Part shown: positions 16,637-59,351 of the stretch, piece by piece | Numbering within the stretch: position 1 is the stretch's first letter | Layout: each line of letters starts with the position of its first letter | Assembly: GCA_963845755.1 (NCBI GenBank) | Contig: CAWJTV010000011.1 | Span: forward strand, 64,001 to 128,000 | Reading direction: 5' to 3' | From: an uncultured Planctomycetota bacterium | GTDB taxonomy: Bacteria > Planctomycetota > Planctomycetia > Isosphaerales > Isosphaeraceae | DNA length: 64,000 bases | The notes under the pieces: generated by a model | What the model saw: the letters and a program-made list of their open reading frames with translations, nothing else | The model's database searches: none | Told to the model about the DNA's origin: nothing | Program-made: the position numbers and the translations under genes

Positions 16637-19293
16637 TCATGGCACGAACGGCGTGTGCGGCACCCGGGCGTGGCAGGTCGTCCCGGCGTGGAAACGCCTG
16701 GCATGAGGACCGCGACCGTAGAAGATGTGAGGGCGCCGGGGTCCCTCGAGCGCCGGCGCCTTGTGGCCCAAACGCTTCTGGAGCGGTCGCCGGACTCGAT
16801 AGGCGACGGCCGAAGTCAGGATCACTCCGAGAGGGATCGTGAGGTCGGCTTCGATCAGGTGTGATCGGTGTTTTCGACGGCGTGCGGGGACCGGGACTTC
16901 GGACTGGGCGAGGATTTCCGAGGACTCCGGCGTCCTGGGGCTGTGGTCTGCATCGGACACCCCGCCGAGCCAGGAGGAGATGGGCCCGCTCGGGAACCAG
17001 TTGACCAGGGAGAGCAGCCGGTCAACCCGCGCCAGGACCCGCGCATCTTCGCCGGCGCCGACCGTCTCGGGTTTGGCCGTCACAGCCAGGACGGCCGCCT
17101 CTTGCGGGACGGCCGGTTGACCTTCGGCGGAGCCGAGATTTTCGGGCGGATCGCCATTGCCGAGTCGCCACTCGGAGTCCGACGCCGACGTGTAGCGGAT
17201 TCCCGGCATCAACCCGTTCAATCGATCCGCCACGGAAGCCAGCGCCCCCTCGACCGTCGGGCCGACCGCGGCGACCTGCTGGGCATCCGCCCCCGGCAGC
17301 CCCATCAGGCCCGTGTCCATCGAGACCAGCAGCAAGCTGGAGGGGACGGGAGACGCGACGAGTGCTGTCACACTCGATGCCGCGCTGCCGCCGGAAATCA
17401 CCGCATTCGTCACCCCATCGGCTGCTCCCAGGCCCGATGTCGCGGTCGGGTCCGCCGAGAGCGAGCCGACCAGCGACAAGCTCAGCGCGGGTGCCTGGCC
17501 GACGCCGTTCTCGATGATCTTCTCGTAATCGAGTGCCAGCGGCTTGAGGGTCCATTGAACCACGGCGGGTTGAGACCCGACGGCGGTCACCCGCACGTCG
17601 TAGACCCCGGGCTGGAGTGCCATCTCGGAGTGGGTCAGTCCCGACAGGTTGTCCATGGTGAGGGCGGTCGTCCCGCCTGGCCCCGTGACTTCGAGATCGG
17701 CCTCGCCTGCGCCCACGAGGGTCTGGATCCCGTAAGTACCGGGGCAGATCACCACGAAGCGGTAGGCGGTTTCCTGGCCGGCGGCGAGCAGGGTGGTCCG
17801 CGAGATCGACGAGTCCCAGGTCACGTTGATCGGGCCGGGCCAGACGACGCCCAGATTGTCGGGGCGCTCGCTCCGGTGGGTGCGATGGTCCAGGTCGCCA
17901 GGACGCCCGACGGATTGCCCGACGGAGCGACCAGCGGTAGGCCGGAGGAATCGGTCAAGCCGCCTTGGACCGGATCGACCAACCGGTACGTCCCCGCCGG
18001 CAGGGGTTCGTCGAAGATGAACCCAAGTGCGTTCGTGGCGAATTGATCGCTCACGGCCGTGATGGGCCAGACCTGGCCCGAGGCGTTGACCACTTCGAGG
18101 GCGGTCTCTTGCTGGTCGGGAAGGAATAGAGGGGTCGCGTTGACCGGGCCGGAGAAGGTCAGGTCCAGTCCCGTCGGGGACGGTTCGAGGGAATCCGCGT
18201 ACTCCAGGGTGTGGCCCACCAGGGTGGTGGTGCTGACGGCCGGATCGGCGAACAACTGGAGGAGGAACCGGCCGCTGGGGCCTTCGAAACCCGCGATGCC
18301 CGGCGTCCCCGTCACGGGGTTGTAGCCGTTGAGCCATCCGGTCAGGTTCTTGGCGGCGGAGACCCCGACGTAATACGTTCCCGGCGCCAGGCCCTCGATG
18401 AGGAAGGGATCGGAGCGGTTGGTCGCCGAACCCGCGCCGGAGGTGTTTTCGGCCAGCACATCCCCCTTGGCGTCGAAGAGGGTCAGGCCGGCTGTCAAGG
18501 GGCTGCCGATGGCCTGCGACAAGAGCTGCGCATTCAATTGCCAGCGGTTCCCCGACGGCAGCGTGAACTGATAGAGGCTTACCGACGACGACGCGTTCTG
18601 GGGATCGACGAAGCCCGAAACGCTCCGCGTCGTCGGGCCGATGTTCCCCAACTTGATCGCGCCTCCCAGCGTCACTCCGGGGCCCAGGATCGTGAACTGG
18701 GCGATCGGCACCGGCTGGCTCCCCGCCCAGGCCGATGCCGGGTAGAACGAACCGAACACGGAAGCCAGCACAGTCCCCGGCAGGATGTCGAGCTGGTAAG
18801 TCCCCGGCCCCAGCCCCAGGTTCCCTGCCGAAGGCGAGATGCTGACCTGGGCCTGGGAGACGGTCCCATCGGCAGCCGTCTGGATGGTGACGTTCTCCTG
18901 CAGCGGCGACGAGGTGTTGCTGCCCAGCACGGGCGACCCCACGCCGCCGGGGCCGACCTGGTCGAGCTCCACCTCGGCGTTGTCACCCTGGCTGACATTG
19001 TCGAACGCGACGAGTGCGGGAAAGGTCTGACCTGGTTCGGTACCGAGTAAGCCCGAGAAGACATTGTCGATCGTGGTGACGTCACCCGGGTCGAAGGTGA
19101 TCGCCAACTGCTGAGGCGCCTGAAGCAGGACCGTCCCATCGGCCGGCTGAATCGCATCGATCCCGGGTAGGGAGACCGAGAGGAGATGCCGGCTCTCCAG
19201 GAGTTCCAGGGCGGGCCGACGACTCGCTGGCCGCTGGGAGCGGGTTCGGAGATGATACGACTTCCCATCAAGCAGGTTCATCGGGATATCCAC
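16637..19293 (-). CDS. Large LEPR-XLL surface protein with PPC-like domains and C-terminal TM helix, frameshifted near 17850
   Basis: PALELLESRHLL; YQFTL...LTLFDA.G..LA.N...DPFL...L.PGTYYVGVS. ORFs 17821..19293 and 16637..18337 join; C-terminal LGVILTSAVAYRVRR. Confidence 0.7.
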
Positions 19294-44921: not shown

Positions 44922-47395
44922 TCAGAAGTGGGATGCGTGGACCCGGCGGAAGTTGAGTTGGGGCGTTTGGCTGTCGGCCATGGCATCGCGGATGCCGCCG
45001 CGAAGTGCGTCGATCAGGTCTTCCTCCGGATGGCCGTCGGCCGGGTAGTCGACCCACTGGCCGCCACGGCGCTGCTTGGAGTAGTTCCGGAAAGCGTCCT
45101 TCAGCCGCGTGCACCGCGGGTGAATCGTCAGGTTGCCGGTCTCCAGGAGCAGCTCGATCGCGTCGAGGCCATCCAGGACCAGGTGTCGGGGCCAGCGATC
45201 GAGGATGCGCGTGCCGAAGACGCGTTCGTATTCGCCATAGGCGGCCGGGCCCAGCGAGGACCGCGCTGTCGCCGCGGGGTCGACACGGACGGAGTCGATC
45301 CGGCCACGGCACGGCAGCTCATCGGCCAGCGCCTTGATGGCACGGGCATTCTTCTCGCTTACCCGATCAATCGCGTGGTAATCGCCGAAGACCGTCACGC
45401 GCGACCAGCCGGCCGCCGGATTCGGTCGGACCTGGAAGAAGACCGCTGCGGTGTGGCGCGACGTACCGGCGTCGATGGCGCAGCGGACCGGGTATCCGGG
45501 GTGATACTCGGCCTCGGTGGAGACGTGCCGGGCAGGGTCGAAGTTGGCGAACCAGACGCCTTCGGTCGTCTCCAGGAACTCGGCGTAGATCTCCTGGCGG
45601 CCCAGCCGGGTATGCTCGTACAGGCTGACGATCTGATCGACGAACTCGCGGGGCAAGTGGACCTGGTTGTCGTAAGTGGTTTCGGTCGTCCGGACGGTGG
45701 TCGGCTCGCCCAGGATTCGCTTCAGGACGGCGACGCGGCGCGGCGTGGTCGTGATGAGGGCCTGGGGATTGGCCCCGTCCCGCAGGGCCAGCATCGCCAG
45801 GTCCCAGGTCATCTGGGCGCGCTTCCAGCAGTTATGGACCAGGATCCCGTTGGCATAGAACTCGTGGGCATCTTCGACGTGAAGGTCGTAGACGGGTGCC
45901 CTATCGGGAAGTTTCTCGATCCTTACGACGGAGGGCGGACTGCTGGCTCCAATGAATTGCCTGACAGCGTCGCGAGCACGTGATCCGCAGGTGTAAATTG
46001 GCTGACGAGAATGGTTGTTGACAGATGGGACACAACTTTGCCGGCCTGCGCTTGATGCGCCGGCGCACGCGATAGGCATCCCCACATTCTCGTGAGCACG
46101 TGACCGTTCGAGGATCGCGGCTCGGAATGGAGTGCCACAGATCGCACACGGCTTCTCGGTTCGCCTCCGTTGAGAGACCTTTGGCTTCTTCGGCCTCGGT
46201 TTAACTCTGCCGGTCCGGTAATAGTACCGTTGCGCACACCGGATGTTGCAGAACTTCGCTCGCATCCCAGTGCTCTGGTAGACAGTTCCGCACCCGACAC
46301 AGACGACGTCGCGCGGCTCCCTTTCGCCCCACTGCTTCCATGAATTCTCCTGAAACTGCTCCTTGGACCATGCAGCCCAACCCTTGGGCCTATGTCGTTT
46401 GAGATGTACCGAGCGAGGAATCGCTTCGAGGTTTTCCGGCGCCCAGTTCGTCTTGTCCTCATCCTTATGGTGGACGTCGTATCCTCTTGGGATTTCTCCG
46501 CAGTGAGCGCGGTAAACGGCGCGATGCAGCATCCGCCCGTTTCGGGACACATAGTACCCGCCGTTGAGATACCAACGGATCCCTCCCCAAGACACGACGC
46601 GAGGTGACGATTGTCCCATGCATTGATTCTATCGCCATGCTGCAAAAGATCAATCCGAATCCACCCCTTTTCATCGATGAATACAAGATGGTTGGCGGTG
46701 CCTTCGAGCGTTCGTCCGTCGGAGAACGTGACCCGGTAGATTTCGGCGGAAGGATTGGACTGCCAGGAATCGAGAACGCGGCGGGGGCCGACGCGGGTCC
46801 ACACGTGCTCGCCGGCTCGCACCGATTCGATCGGCCTCAAGCCTTCGATCGTCTGGACGAGGGTCCCCGCGACCAGGCACGCCAGCTCGTCGGCCCAGAG
46901 GGTGTCGAGGTTCAACCCGCGGGCGCGCTCGGGCTCCTCGCCGCTGAGACAGACGGCACGGGCGCCGTTGGGCCAGGTGACGCGGCGTTTGGACGGCTCG
47001 AACCGAGGCCGGCACCACGGGGACGCGACCGCGAGCAACCCGGAGGGGCCCTCGACCATCACATCGCGGATATCGGCGTTGGTCGGAGCGATCAGGCCGC
47101 CGAGCTTCATGATGCCGGACTCGACCCGGGACTGGATCCAGCAGGCCCCTCCGCGCGTCTTTCCGGCACCTCTCCCGGCGATGTATCCCCAGACGCGCCA
47201 GTCACTTGCGGGCGGACGCTGGGCGACCCGCGCCCGGGGATGAATACGGCACGCGCCGGCAGGCAGCCCGCACGGGCAGGATTCGGCGTACCAATCCCAA
47301 ACCGAGCGGTCGGCCACCAGGGGTGCGAGCGTGCCGAGGCGGGCCTCAGCTCGCGCAATCCGCGCTGCCAGTCCGATCACCGATCTGCTCCTCAA
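44922..47395 (-). CDS. Phage-type terminase large subunit containing an intein (1-nt deletion at 46119-46120)
   Basis: AR..Q.PP..DW..W...AGRGAGKT (Walker A); LWADELA (Walker B); ITTTP; RLGRQEIYAE; RNase-H-like domain IDAG...D.IDALR. Confidence 0.9.
45831..46879 (-). mobile_element. Intein (350 aa after restoring one base)
   Basis: Starts CLVAGTLV (block A); GTANHLVF (block B TxxH); VYDLHVEDAHEFYANGILVHN (blocks F/G); +1 residue Cys. Span 1049 nt + 1 = 1050. Confidence 0.92.
45901..46619 (-). CDS. HNH endonuclease with three C-terminal zinc-finger-like modules, nested out of frame in the intein
   Basis: Own ATG at 46619; LHRAVY...GEIP.GYDVHHKDEDKTNWAPENLE; CVGC..FCNIRC, CAIC..TCSREC, CPIC..TCSRRC; TAG at 45901. 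Confidence 0.85.
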
Positions 47396-47740
47396 TCTGG
47401 GACATGCGGCGCTCGAGCCCCGCGTAATTCGAGATGGCCATCATGTCGGAAAGGATGGCCCGCAGCGCTGTCAACTTGACGGACTCGGACTCGGCCTCCC
47501 GGGCGAGCACGATGATCCCATCGGCCGCGCGGGTGACGTTCTTGGACATCCGGCCGATGGCCCGGTCGACGGCACGGCGGCGATACGCCTTCACGGCGTC
47601 CTGGACCCTGGGCTCCTTGGCCCATCGGTAGGCCGTCCGCCTGGCGACCTGGTGCTCCCGCGCCACGAGGCGACGGACGTTCCCTGGGCGATTGCCAGGG
47701 CGAGGTTGGACTTCTTGCCTGGGGGATGCGGTTCGGTCAT
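47346..47740 (-). CDS. HTH protein, putative terminase small subunit, frameshifted near 47663
   Basis: MTEPHPPGKKSNLALAIAQGTSVASW joins AREHQVARRTAYRW (HTH) if one G is added; overlaps the terminase start. Confidence 0.7.
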
Positions 47741-55580: not shown

Positions 55581-58500
55581 TCAGGGGGCCTCCTCTTCTT
55601 CCGCCGCATTGTCACCACCCTTGTCTTCCTCCTCGCCGCCGTTGCCCTCACCGAAGGCCTCGGGATCGTAGTGCGCGCTTTCGGGATTGGCCGGGTAGAG
55701 GGAGGGCGAGCGGGGTTCCTGGCGGCCGATCACCAGCGCGAAGATCGAGGGGAGGACCAGCAAGGTGGCGAACGTGGACATCACGAGTCCCCCGATCACG
55801 GCGCGGCCGAGCGGGGCCTCCATCTGGCTGCCGCGCTCCAGGGCCAGCGCCATGGGCACCATGCCGACGGTCATCGCGCAGGCCGTCATCAGGATCGGCC
55901 GTAGCCGTTCGCTGGCACCCATGATGGCGGCCTCGGTCGAGCGCTTGCCCGCCTTCCAGTGTTCGTCCATGAACGTGACCATCATCACCGAGTTGGAGAC
56001 CGAGACGCCCAGGCACATGATCGAACCCATGAACGACTCGATGTTAACCGTGGTCTTGCTGAAGTAGAGGATGGTCACGATGCCGGCGAGCACGCCCGGC
56101 ACGGCCCCGATGGAGATCAGGGCCAGGCGCGGGGATTGGAAATAGGCCGTCAACAGGACGAGGATGACGAAGACAGAGACCGCCAATCCGATCCCCAGGG
56201 CCTCGAACATCTTGCTCATCGGCGGCAGCGATCCCATCTCCTCCAGGCGGACGCCGCGGGGCAGCTCCCCGACCTCGTCGCACGCCTGGCGGACCTGCTT
56301 GGCGGCCCGACCCAGGTCCTCACCCTCGACGTTGGCGATCACGGTCAGGTACGCGCTGCGACATGTCGCGGTCGTACTCGCCGGGCCGCACGCTCTCATG
56401 AACCTGGCCGTCCTTCAACACGTCGCGGACCATCAGGGGAACATAGGGGTTGACCGACTCCAGCGGCAACTCTTCGAGATCCGACGGCTTCTCCATCCGC
56501 AAGGCCGGCACCTGGATCTGCACCAGGTAGTCGAAGCCGGTCTTCTCGTCGATCCAGTAATTGAGATTGGTGAAACGGGTCGAGGCGGTCGCCATGACGA
56601 GTGCACGCTCGACGTGCTTGAGGGTGACGCCGACCAGGCCCGCCAGCTCGCGGTCGATGGTGACCTCGACCGTGGGGTAGTCGAGCGTTTGCTCGAAGCC
56701 GACATCGCGGAGGAAGGGATTGCGCCTCAGCGCGGCGGCCACCTTCTCGGCATGCGCACGGATGGCATCATAATCGGTGCCGACGAGGCGAACCGCGATC
56801 GGCTTCGAGGAGCCGAAGCTCATGACCTGACTCACGATGTCGCCCGGCTCGAAACCGAAGGTGCTCTTGTCCGCCTGTTTCTGCGCCTCGTCCTTGGACA
56901 ATCCGCCCGTCTCCAGCCGGTTCGCCAGCCAGGGGCCCACCCGCTCGGGGAGGACCTTCCGGAGCCGCTCGCGGAACTCGTCGAGCTTGATCTTGCTGTC
57001 CTCCTTCAACTTGACGCGCAGCCAGCCGTCGTCGGGCCCGCGCATGAACAGCACCATGTTGTCGATGCCGAAGTTCGGGGCGACCTGGCCGACGAAGCCC
57101 ATCGTGATCGAGACGTTGTCGGTCCCCGCCTCGTTCTCGACCTCCTGGAGGCATTTGATCCCCATCTCGCGGGTCAGCTCGTAGCTCGACCCCGCAGGCG
57201 GTCGGAACCGCAGCACGAATTCCCCCTGATCGATCTGCGGGAACAATTCGGTGCCGACCTCGAGACCCAGCACCCCCAGGATGAGGCCGCACGCGCCGAG
57301 ATAGATCATGACCACCCAGAAGCGATGCGCGACGAACGCTTGCACGGCCGTGCGATAAGCCCCGCTGACCCGGTCGAACAGTCCGGGCTTCTTCTCGCCC
57401 TGTTCCTTCTTGTGCTTGAGCAGGTAGACGCTCATGATCGGCACGAATGTGCTGGAGAGCAGGTACGAAAAGACCATGGCGAAGCCGACCGCCAGGGTCA
57501 GCGGCATGAACAACGACCGCAGCGGGTCTTCCATGATGAACGCCGGGATGAACACCGACAGGATGCAGAGCAAGGCCAGCAGCCGCGGCACGGCCGTCGC
57601 GTTGCTGGCGTTGAGTACCGCCGTGGCGATGTTCGAGGTTTCCTCCATCTGCACGTGGGTGTTCTCGATCGTCACGGTCGCCTCATCGACCAGGATGCCG
57701 ATGGCCAAAGCCATGCCGCCCAGCGACATGATGTTGATCGTGTTCTGCGTCACCCAGAGTCCGAACAGGGACCCCATCAGGGCGAGCGGGATGTTGCAGA
57801 CGACGACCATCACGCTCCGCAGGTCGCGGAGGAACAGGAGGATCATCAGCCCGGTCAGGCCCGCGCCGATCGCGCCCTCGGTGGCCACGCTCTCGACCGC
57901 ATGCACCACCGTGGGCGACTCGTCGAACTCGAAGGTGATCTTCACGTCGGGCGGGACGGCGGCGCGGAAGGTCTCCAGCGACTTGTTGACGTCGGCGACG
58001 ACGGTGAGCGTCGAGCCGGTGTCCTTCTTGATGATCGGCAGGTGGATCGCCTTCTGGCCGTTGACGAGGGCATAGCCGTAGGTGATGTCGGTGTCGTCCT
58101 GGATGGTCGCCACGTCGCGGAGGTAGACGTTCTGGCCCAGCCGGAGCGGGATGTCGCCCAGGCGCTGGATGTCGACCACCGTGGCGTTGTTGTGGACGAT
58201 CGGCATCGCGTCCTTGACGTAGATGTTCCCCGACGGGATGACGACGTTCCCGTTCTTGAGGGCCTCGACGACGTGCTGGGGGTTGAGGTTGTATTCGAGG
58301 AGCTTTCGGGGATCGACATTGACGATGATCGACCGCATGTTCGGGCCGAATGGGGAGATGGCGACCGTGCCGGGGACGTTCTTCTGCACGAGTGGCCGGA
58401 TGATGTTCTGCGCCAGGTCGCCCATCGCCCCGATCGAAGTCTTGTCGCCCTCGCTGGTGAAGACGAGGTAGCCGATCGGGACGCTGCCGGCGTCCATGCG

Positions 58501-58920
58501 CATGATCATCGGCGGCAAGGACCCCGGGGGCATCCACGCCATGGCCCGGTCGGACATCGCCACGACCTGGGCCATGGCCTGGCCCATCTCGGTGTCGTGG
58601 AAGAAGCCGAGCTCGCACAAGCCGACCTGCTGGATGTTCCGCGATTTGATGTCCTGGATGCCGTCGACGTACTGAAAGTACAGCTCGAGCTCGTTGACGA
58701 TGAATCCCTCGATCTGGTCGGGACTCATGCCGATGAAATCGAAGAAGACGTAGATCTTCGGGGTGTTCAGCGAGGGGAAGATGTCCACGCGCATCTTCCC
58801 GTAGGCCAGGATGCCCAGGCTGATCAGAGCCAAGACCAGCATCATGAGGGTGATGGGATGATCCATCGCCAGGACGGTGGGATTCGCGGATCCGGCTTTC
58901 TTCCTGGGTTCGGCGGCCAC
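55581..58920 (-). CDS. RND efflux permease (AcrB/AcrD/AcrF family), frameshifted near 56355
   Basis: GAGGAG plus GTG start; NIMSLGGMALAIGILVDEATVTIEN; RLRPILMT; PLGRAVIGGL. Confidence 0.93.
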
Positions 58921-59351
58921 GAGTAGAACTCCTCGATGCGGCTGGCTCCAGTCGTTCGGCGAGGCGCCGCGCACATTTGCGATCGGCCGGAACGGTGGGC
59001 CGATTCCATCGTCGGACGGCGGCCGCCGTCACGCCCCGGTCTCGCAGAGTGATCACTCCCGCGCCTCGCCAGGCATCAACCGACGAGACGACTCCCCGGC
59101 TCTCGTTCCTCGCGCTGCGCGATCAACCTTTTGCAAGCAATTCCTGCGCCAGATGCGTCCCGGTGAGCTTACCTTCCGAACGACTTCACCGGCCGGACGA
59201 GCCGGCCGTGGTCGACCCTCCAGTGAGCTTTGCGCCTTCCCAGCCCAGGTTTTTTGCCCTTATCACCGCGACCCTCGCCGACTACAGTGATCGGGGCGGA
59301 AGATTCCGATTCGGCGGATTGCGCCGATAGTCGGGGCGAATACCAGGGAGG

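Follow-up and report, generated by a model that had tools for sequence, protein, structure and literature searches.

Out-of-frame nuclease genes in known inteins

We describe an intein in the gene for the large terminase subunit (terL, encoding TerL) of an uncultured bacterium of the Isosphaeraceae. The gene lies in a stretch of 64,000 nucleotides (positions 64,001 to 128,000 of contig CAWJTV010000011.1, GenBank assembly GCA_963845755.1) that was analyzed as a whole and is referred to here as the window. The element is very probably a non-canonical mobile intein, with both Hint halves in the TerL frame and with an I-HmuI-like nuclease, consisting of an HNH_3 domain and three zinc ribbons, nested inside it as a gene of its own. 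Four kinds of sequence evidence argue for this reading: the anatomy of the locus, its homology to many intact elements with this arrangement, selection on the nuclease frame combined with avoidance of stops in the intein frame, and exact empty sites. The layout itself is not new; out-of-frame nuclease genes in inteins are already in print. The initial annotation of the window, made from the sequence alone, knew of no standard description of the arrangement; an out-of-frame HNH gene in a TerL intein had, however, been reported in brucellaphages (PMC4422536).

One of the closest described cases is that of the brucellaphages Tb, Pr and their relatives (Virol J 2015, PMC4422536). As in the window, a gene of about 228 codons encoding an HNH protein with a zinc ribbon overlaps the middle of TerL, and the authors call this gene intein-encoded. 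No brucellaphage occurs among the 25 phage records that match the nuclease family of the window at E ≤ 1e-8, nor among those at E ≤ 1e-5, and the brucellaphage nuclease is therefore at best a distant subfamily.

Out-of-frame endonucleases have also been described in actinophage inteins, where they resemble endonuclease VII (IPR004211) (Gosselin, Arsenault and Gogarten, bioRxiv 10.1101/2025.01.02.630785). That description agrees with our findings in the architecture, the relative frame, the presence of TerL among the hosts and the predicted lack of structure in the middle of the intein frame. The origin proposed there, invasion of an intein by a free-standing nuclease gene, is one that could apply here as well. 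However, the window nuclease is HNH_3/I-HmuI-like and does not belong to the endonuclease VII family. The Pfam model Endonuclease_7 is not matched at E ≤ 1, T4 endonuclease VII (1E7D) is not among the structure matches, and no SEA-PHAGES phage is found among the best 60 of 747 phage matches to the nuclease family.

A same-strand overlap is described for a cyanobacterial dnaX intein that carries a LAGLIDADG gene in the +2 frame (Phillips et al., bioRxiv 10.64898/2026.09.14.751524); the authors credit the idea to Gorbalenya 1998, 'Non-canonical inteins'. That intein shares with ours the overlapping nuclease, frame-dependent selection and a proposed secondary invasion of a mini-intein. It differs in its LAGLIDADG nuclease, in its host gene and in being cellular rather than phage-borne. 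Fractured genes (Dassa et al., NAR 2009, PMC2677866) likewise have a nuclease gene between intein halves, an arrangement also seen in some relatives of the window element. They differ from the window in that its intein frame is continuous, and their nuclease family is another one. Finally, the ShiLan insertion in a phage DNA methylase (Arsenault et al., Genes 2025, PMC11855218) resembles our element in its out-of-frame HNH and open host frame. This insertion, however, has no Hint domains and thus is not spliced out as an intein. To these examples the window copy adds a planctomycete-type host and a nuclease with three zinc modules.

Anatomy of the terL intein and its nested nuclease gene

The terL gene, the intein and the nested nuclease gene all lie on the minus strand of the window. 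The TerL N-extein (46880..47395, approximately 172 codons from an approximate start codon to ...DTLWADELA) matches Pfam Terminase_6N (E 1.8e-10) and can be aligned with intein-less homologues across the junction. Together with the first half of the intein it forms a single frame (ORF 47395..45923; ORF, open reading frame). The whole intein spans 45831..46879, from Cys1 (TGC, 46879-46877) to ...VHN (45833-45831), which is followed by Cys+1. As assembled it measures 1049 nt, one base short of 350 codons.

The N-terminal Hint half (46620..46879) contains blocks A and B (CLVAGTLV ... GTANHLVF ... LLQHGD, with GTANH as block B) and can be aligned with the Hint-N halves of 12 relatives. In Pfam it matches Hint_2 (E 1.1e-5), PT-HINT and Intein_splicing, the intein matches ranging from E 1e-5 to 2e-3. 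The C-terminal half (45831..45932) contains blocks F and G (SVVRIEKLPDRAPVYDLHVEDAHEFYANGILVHN), corresponds to positions 122-155 of the Intein_splicing profile (E 2.5e-6) and is also alignable with relatives. The intein ends in ...VYDLHVEDAHEFYANGILVHN|CW..., with HN and then Cys+1, as is required of a class 1 intein. The C-extein (44922..45830, 302 codons and a stop) begins with CWKRAQMTWD and matches positions 108-211 of the Terminase_6N profile.

The nuclease gene opens at ATG 46619, three codons downstream of a TAG stop in the same frame, and its codons begin one base upstream of those of the intein. Its first part (46120..46619) encodes the HNH_3 core with the motif HHKDEDKTN...NLE, followed by a helical region, the first zinc module and half of the second; the match to Pfam HNH_3 is above the cut-off (E 2.1e-12, 46.9 bits against 24.8). 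The second part (45901..46119) encodes the rest of module 2 and module 3 and ends with TAG at 45903-45901. It is recognized from ORF 46149..45901, from weak zinc-ribbon matches in Pfam and from alignment with the zinc modules of relatives. The 3' end of the gene extends about ten codons into the C-terminal Hint half. Between the two parts lies a zone, 46100..46124, placed by the homology of zinc module 2, in which the assembly lacks one base and both TerL and the nuclease gene are broken. The second intein half and the C-extein (to 44922) are consequently read in the frame of the first nuclease part. Across the overlap the intein frame has no stops in 166 + 72 codons, compared with 4 + 1 stops in the remaining frame. 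Given the one-base gap, the nuclease ORF thus lies between blocks B and F, on the same strand but in a different frame, and the intein frame stays open across it. A search of the genome found no further copy of the nuclease.

The boundaries of the intein are fixed by empty sites. Intein-less TerL homologues in three related genomes (G029, G035 and G015) are 68-78% identical to TerL over the C-extein; they have open frames of approximately 477-580 codons and read ...DTLWADELACWQRA... across the junction (...WADELACWQ...). In addition, a soil-metagenome contig (151 nt, depth 2) links position 45810 to 46877 through 17 other letters and so is shorter by exactly 1049 nt on balance. Because of these homologues and this contig, the limits 46879..45831 are correct, and Cys+1 is native to TerL. 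The initial annotation had run the intein from WADELA/CLVAGT (46879) to VHN/CW (45831) in the terminase frame and had placed an HNH gene with three zinc modules in another frame, from ATG 46619 to TAG 45901. All of these coordinates hold.

Relatives with the same layout

We identified 70 loci related to the element in a scan of 185,579 species genomes and took a further 80, the best of 201, from a scan of IMG/VR. Hidden Markov models of the two Hint halves and of the nuclease served to class the loci. Both Hint halves occur in one open frame at +1 to the nuclease in 14 of the 70 genomic and 66 of the 80 viral loci, shares that are biased upward because the loci were picked by similarity to a query alignment built mostly from nested copies. 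The corresponding arrangement at +2 occurs in no genomic and one viral locus (L099, an IMG/VR contig with a G+C content of 0.59), the sole case of an open TerL/intein frame in that position. The Hint halves flank the nuclease without forming one ORF in 3 genomic and 9 viral loci, a single Hint half was found in 1 and 2, and no Hint was found in 52 and 2, respectively. The nuclease is in frame with the intein in none of the 70 and none of the 80. When the 94 loci that have a full-length nuclease are grouped at 80% identity, 54 clusters result. Of these clusters 37 are nested at +1 and one at +2, 11 have Hint halves that are not in one ORF, three have one Hint half, two have no Hint, and none has the nuclease in frame.

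Terminase and Hint or Intein_splicing matches in Pfam bridge the overlap in 17 of 18 host ORFs. The terminases vary in type (6N/6C, 3/3C and T7-like), as does the position of the intein. It lies at Walker B in the window, L006, L087 and the first intein of L019, and at the nuclease-domain motif DH|xDAxRY in most other loci. The nearest relatives of the window element, L087 and L088, are contiguous. An Isosphaeraceae-type genome (G013, loci L002 and L006) has an unbroken TerL frame with the same type of intein, inserted at Walker B five residues upstream of the site in the window (...HHYGW|C...HN|CDELAKW). There the overlap consists of approximately 200 codons rich in Ser, Thr, Arg and Ala, and an ORF of 222-270 codons with the HNH and zinc modules is nested in the same relative frame. 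Downstream of this TerL are genes for a portal protein and a major head protein. The same TerL (L006:390-4148, plus strand) also has an ordinary in-frame LAGLIDADG intein (Pfam LAGLIDADG_3, Hom_end) upstream of the dual-coding one.

The layout is present in four cultured phages: Tetrasphaera phage TJE1, Clostridium phage phiCDHM19, Acinetobacter phage Highwayman and a Rhodobacteraceae phage. In their public records (L076, HQ225832; L077, LK985322; L080, OZ038341; L081, OP947163) only the terminase gene is listed under the nuclease match, and the nested gene is not among the features given there. The record of phi CD119 (L082) gives ter1, ter2 and a hypothetical protein for this region. A practical hint for annotation is that approximately 200-240 junk codons inside an intein are a reason to inspect the other frames.

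Two TerL genes carry further overlapping ORFs. In an uncultured Clostridium metagenome-assembled genome (MAG; locus G+C 31%), a second TerL intein (L019:3349-4059, plus strand) has a nested HNH_3/zinc-ribbon ORF in the same relative frame, with ATG 3385 after AAGGAG, which makes two dual-coding inteins in one gene. In an uncultured Halobacteriales MAG, the first of two TerL inteins (L007:394-1080, minus strand) has a 229-codon antisense ORF with an HNH-like motif (...EIVHHCDG...NDLDNL...). The actinophage preprint (10.1101/2025.01.02.630785) describes antisense LAGLIDADG and VSR-like genes in inteins and does not report antisense HNH genes.

Arrangements resembling split inteins make up 11 of the 54 clusters (L089, L090, L092, L134 and L156, also L097, L151, L152, L164, L022, L029 and L032). 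In these, an ORF with the extein and Hint-N ends in a stop and is followed by a nuclease gene in another frame; in L090 this gene precedes a short Hint-C half, some 35 residues long and beginning with Met (MKIKSIYYSGKADVYNMEV...HN|C), after which TerL resumes. Free-standing homologues of the nuclease adjoin terminase genes in phages BP10, PAE1 and CL2. Two Acinetobacter phages of approximately 45 kb present both states: in BP10 (L078) the nuclease is free-standing upstream of terS and TerL is intein-less, and in Highwayman (L080) it is nested. Altogether the family is widespread, with members in Bacteria, Archaea and cultured phages, and also takes the split-intein-like forms.

In a tree of 33 nuclease sequences only 3 of 30 inner branches are well supported. 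The nucleases of BP10 and Highwayman are sisters (SH-aLRT branch support 91). Nested and non-nested copies are intermingled on it, with 9 changes between the two, a number no different from what shuffled labels give (76 of 500). A single origin of nesting would be compatible with this tree, as would several. We tentatively suggest that the HNH_3/zinc-ribbon family may have been associated with terminase inteins for a long time, passing between free-standing (BP10, PAE1, CL2), nested (the window and most relatives) and split-flanked (L089, L090 and others) states. If so, the relative frame would be nearly constant because it is dictated by the frame of the nuclease gene that can stay free of stops, and the family would preserve natural intermediate stages in the acquisition of homing endonucleases by inteins.

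Selection on the overlap

The intein (TerL) frame has no stops in any of the 17 nested overlaps examined, one of which (L029) was later classed as broken or split-like, its Hint halves not forming one ORF. The G+C content of these overlaps ranges from 30 to 64%, and their third frame has 1-39 stops. When each nuclease ORF was shuffled among synonymous codons, the TerL frame acquired a mean of 1-5 stops, and the share of trials that left it open was 0-30% per locus. The control errs on the conservative side, since the constraint has already shaped the amino-acid sequence. Among 23 comparison homologues whose nuclease lies outside one open intein frame, three of which (L018, L022, L032) are flanked by Hint halves, all 23 have stops, 2-19 each, in the equivalent frame. 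For the window taken alone, the open intein frame is unexceptional: shuffles leave its two parts open in 18% and 41% of trials. The significance of the open frame therefore rests on the relatives.

The loci L011 and L012 are a close pair and allow a comparison of codon positions; for the window copy no close relative was found. In the N-extein their substitutions peak at TerL codon position 3 (173/386, versus 53 and 33 at the others), and the Hint parts behave likewise. In the overlap the peak moves to TerL position 2, which is position 3 of the nuclease (91/225 versus 27 and 44). This shift of position together with the avoidance of stops shows that selection reads the nuclease frame and that the TerL frame is only kept open. 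In these two relatives, purifying selection in the overlap acts on the nuclease frame and not on the intein frame.

These results support the proposal in the initial annotation, according to which a separate nuclease gene occupies the usual place of the endonuclease and its reading in the intein frame is a tolerated linker. The unbroken relatives, the selection on the nuclease frame, a linker predicted to be disordered and ribosome-binding sites (both described below) are all consistent with it.

The nuclease and a possible mechanism

Residues H50, H51, K52 and N63 of the nuclease are invariant in 17 sequences. An AlphaFold model of the nuclease core has a confidence (pLDDT) of 86, and the best solved match is I-HmuI (PDB 1U3E), with a sequence-profile E of 1.8e-4. 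A Foldseek search also places 1U3E first (probability 0.99, E 6.5e-3), although the overall similarity is weak (TM 0.29). I-HmuI is a nicking HNH homing endonuclease of a Bacillus phage; it differs from the window nuclease in being intron-encoded and in having other DNA-binding modules where the window nuclease has zinc ribbons. In a model of the unbroken L006 intein the Hint halves fold together (pLDDT approximately 95), and the linker between them (residues 92-290) has a pLDDT of 32-41 and no secondary structure and is therefore predicted to be disordered. Most nested nuclease genes, including those of L007, L019, L029, L077 and L081, start with ATG or GTG preceded at the right distance by a GGAGG-like Shine-Dalgarno motif.

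On these grounds we propose that ribosomes on the TerL message would cross the overlap and produce approximately 240 residues of disordered linker, to be removed with the intein at protein splicing. The nuclease would be made separately by internal initiation at ATG 46619 and would nick or cut intein-less TerL alleles near ...ADELA|CW..., and repair would then copy the intein and the nuclease gene together (homing). Lone terS-terL cassettes, which are present in several copies in the bacterial family of the window, might serve as homing targets within a single genome. Such a layout makes production of the nuclease independent of the host protein, and mobile inteins may plausibly have arisen through an intermediate of this kind ('splicing first, nuclease later').

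Several points weigh against a functional nested element in the window, besides the upward bias of the nested shares, the unexceptional open frame of the window alone and the reclassification of L029. The Hint matches of the window in Pfam are all below the gathering cut-offs. No clear Shine-Dalgarno motif was found before ATG 46619. In the literature searched, no expression, splicing or cleavage data were found for this element or its nuclease family. The terS-terL pair is isolated, since neither portal and capsid genes nor a tRNA gene were found nearby, and may be a relic under no selection. Lastly, because no reads cover 46100-46124, a real inactivating deletion is conceivable.

The frame break and alternative readings

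As assembled, the intein is not a multiple of three in length and the nuclease ORF is interrupted in zinc module 2, at approximately 46100-46124. TerL and the nuclease gene need the same one-step change of frame, and one base added there would thus restore both. It would bring the intein to 1050 nt and join ...CAICGTPFRA to DPRTVTCSREC with a spacing of 13 residues, as in module 1. The initial annotation had added a G at 46119-46120; the one-base repair stands, whereas its exact place is not pinned, since equivalent insertion points run from the conserved Phe codon (46127-46125) to the TCS codons (approximately 46100). No public sequencing run was found to contain the stretch (the best share of sampled words was 0.15), and no RNA run was listed. 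Short contigs from four soil metagenomes that were placed on the window stop at 46114 and resume at 46163, and none crosses 46115-46162.

An error of the assembly is a more probable source of the missing base than a mutation, because frameshifts also occur in rpoB and rpoC of this genome: rpoC (G000:C34:567489-571586) is read in frames A/B/A and rpoB (G000:C34:79366-83015) in two frames. Indel errors therefore seem frequent in this assembly, which has 49 contigs and a marker completeness of 87.9%. In annotating this genome, the break is best handled as an assembly error. A homologue of phrog_7301 elsewhere in the window (55581-58974, minus strand) is also split into two ORFs in different frames that overlap at 56320-56399; the pieces 56320-58974 and 55581-56399 correspond to profile positions 4-753 and 815-1027, and the split is probably another assembly frameshift.

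The same architecture could nevertheless be a dead copy, in which a real one-base deletion knocked out TerL and the nuclease in a decaying prophage remnant. The isolation of terS-terL among permease, TIGR04255 and efflux genes and the lack of reads across the break fit this explanation. However, frameshifts in genes as essential as rpoB and rpoC speak for common indel errors, no stop or defect other than the one break is seen over the approximately 2.5 kb of terS, TerL, intein and nuclease, and lone terS-terL pairs with an intact TerL occur in related genomes too. We therefore regard a dead copy as rather unlikely. The errors of the assembly could also be invoked to hide a canonical intein with an in-frame HNH. 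That would take three indels within 0.7 kb, near 46620, 46120 and 45905, where one suffices, and the stop three codons before the ATG in the HNH frame would lie in the way. Moreover, an out-of-frame nuclease is seen in 84 unbroken relatives and an in-frame one in none. The 17 longest of the best 150 representatives of the family have extra HNH or zinc modules and no Hint or terminase domains. An in-frame HNH is thus close to refuted and extremely improbable, and given the three indels it needs and its absence from all 94 full-length loci, the one-base repair is the most economical reading.

Two further alternatives accept the nuclease as out of frame. In one, TerL is a fractured gene whose two pieces are joined by a split intein, with a free-standing nuclease between them and the open frame an accident of high G+C content. 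The clusters in which Hint-N and Hint-C flank the nuclease without forming one ORF point in this direction, as do several relatives in which Hint-N is closed by a stop and a Met precedes the Hint-C half (about 35 residues), and the open frame of the window is not significant by shuffling. Yet the intein frame of the window has no stop across the whole overlap, there is no start codon in the TerL frame just before the Hint-C half, and the contiguity of L087 and L088 places its nearest relatives on the other side; we consider a fractured TerL highly improbable here. In the other, the nuclease is produced by -1 ribosomal frameshifting from TerL, as a fusion of N-extein, Hint-N and HNH. The nuclease frame is indeed -1 to TerL in nearly all copies, and the window ATG has no clear ribosome-binding site before it. 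However, 14 of 18 elements, among them that of the window, have no slippery heptamer (X_XXY_YYZ) near the start, most relatives have ATG or GTG with a Shine-Dalgarno motif, and free-standing homologues of the same length exist. Frameshifting is accordingly very unlikely as the source of the nuclease, and an independent gene nested in a spliced intein, broken in this assembly by one missing base in 46100-46124 that would be an assembly error, remains the reading we prefer.

Genomic context

The gene for the small terminase subunit, terS (47346..47666, minus strand), lies directly upstream of TerL and matches PHROG phrog_2538 (E 1.3e-9). The neighbors of the pair are an amino-acid permease gene, a gene of the TIGR04255 family and efflux genes. 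A comparable lone terS-terL pair, with no portal or capsid match adjoining, is found at L179:8145-9928. Intein-less TerL homologues give 5 matches in each of the genomes G029, G032 and G000, 3 in G015 and 2 in G035; a genome of this bacterial family can thus hold several copies.

Two ORFs elsewhere in the window, 16637-18337 and 17821-19293, were suspected to be a duplicate terminase locus because their lengths matched those of the two terminase ORFs. This was rejected, as they are an unrelated gene pair. The ORFs (window 16637-19293, minus strand) overlap on the same strand and have 566 and 490 codons, the latter with PPC and CopC-like domains. The pair may be one secreted repeat protein with a frameshift near 17821-18337.

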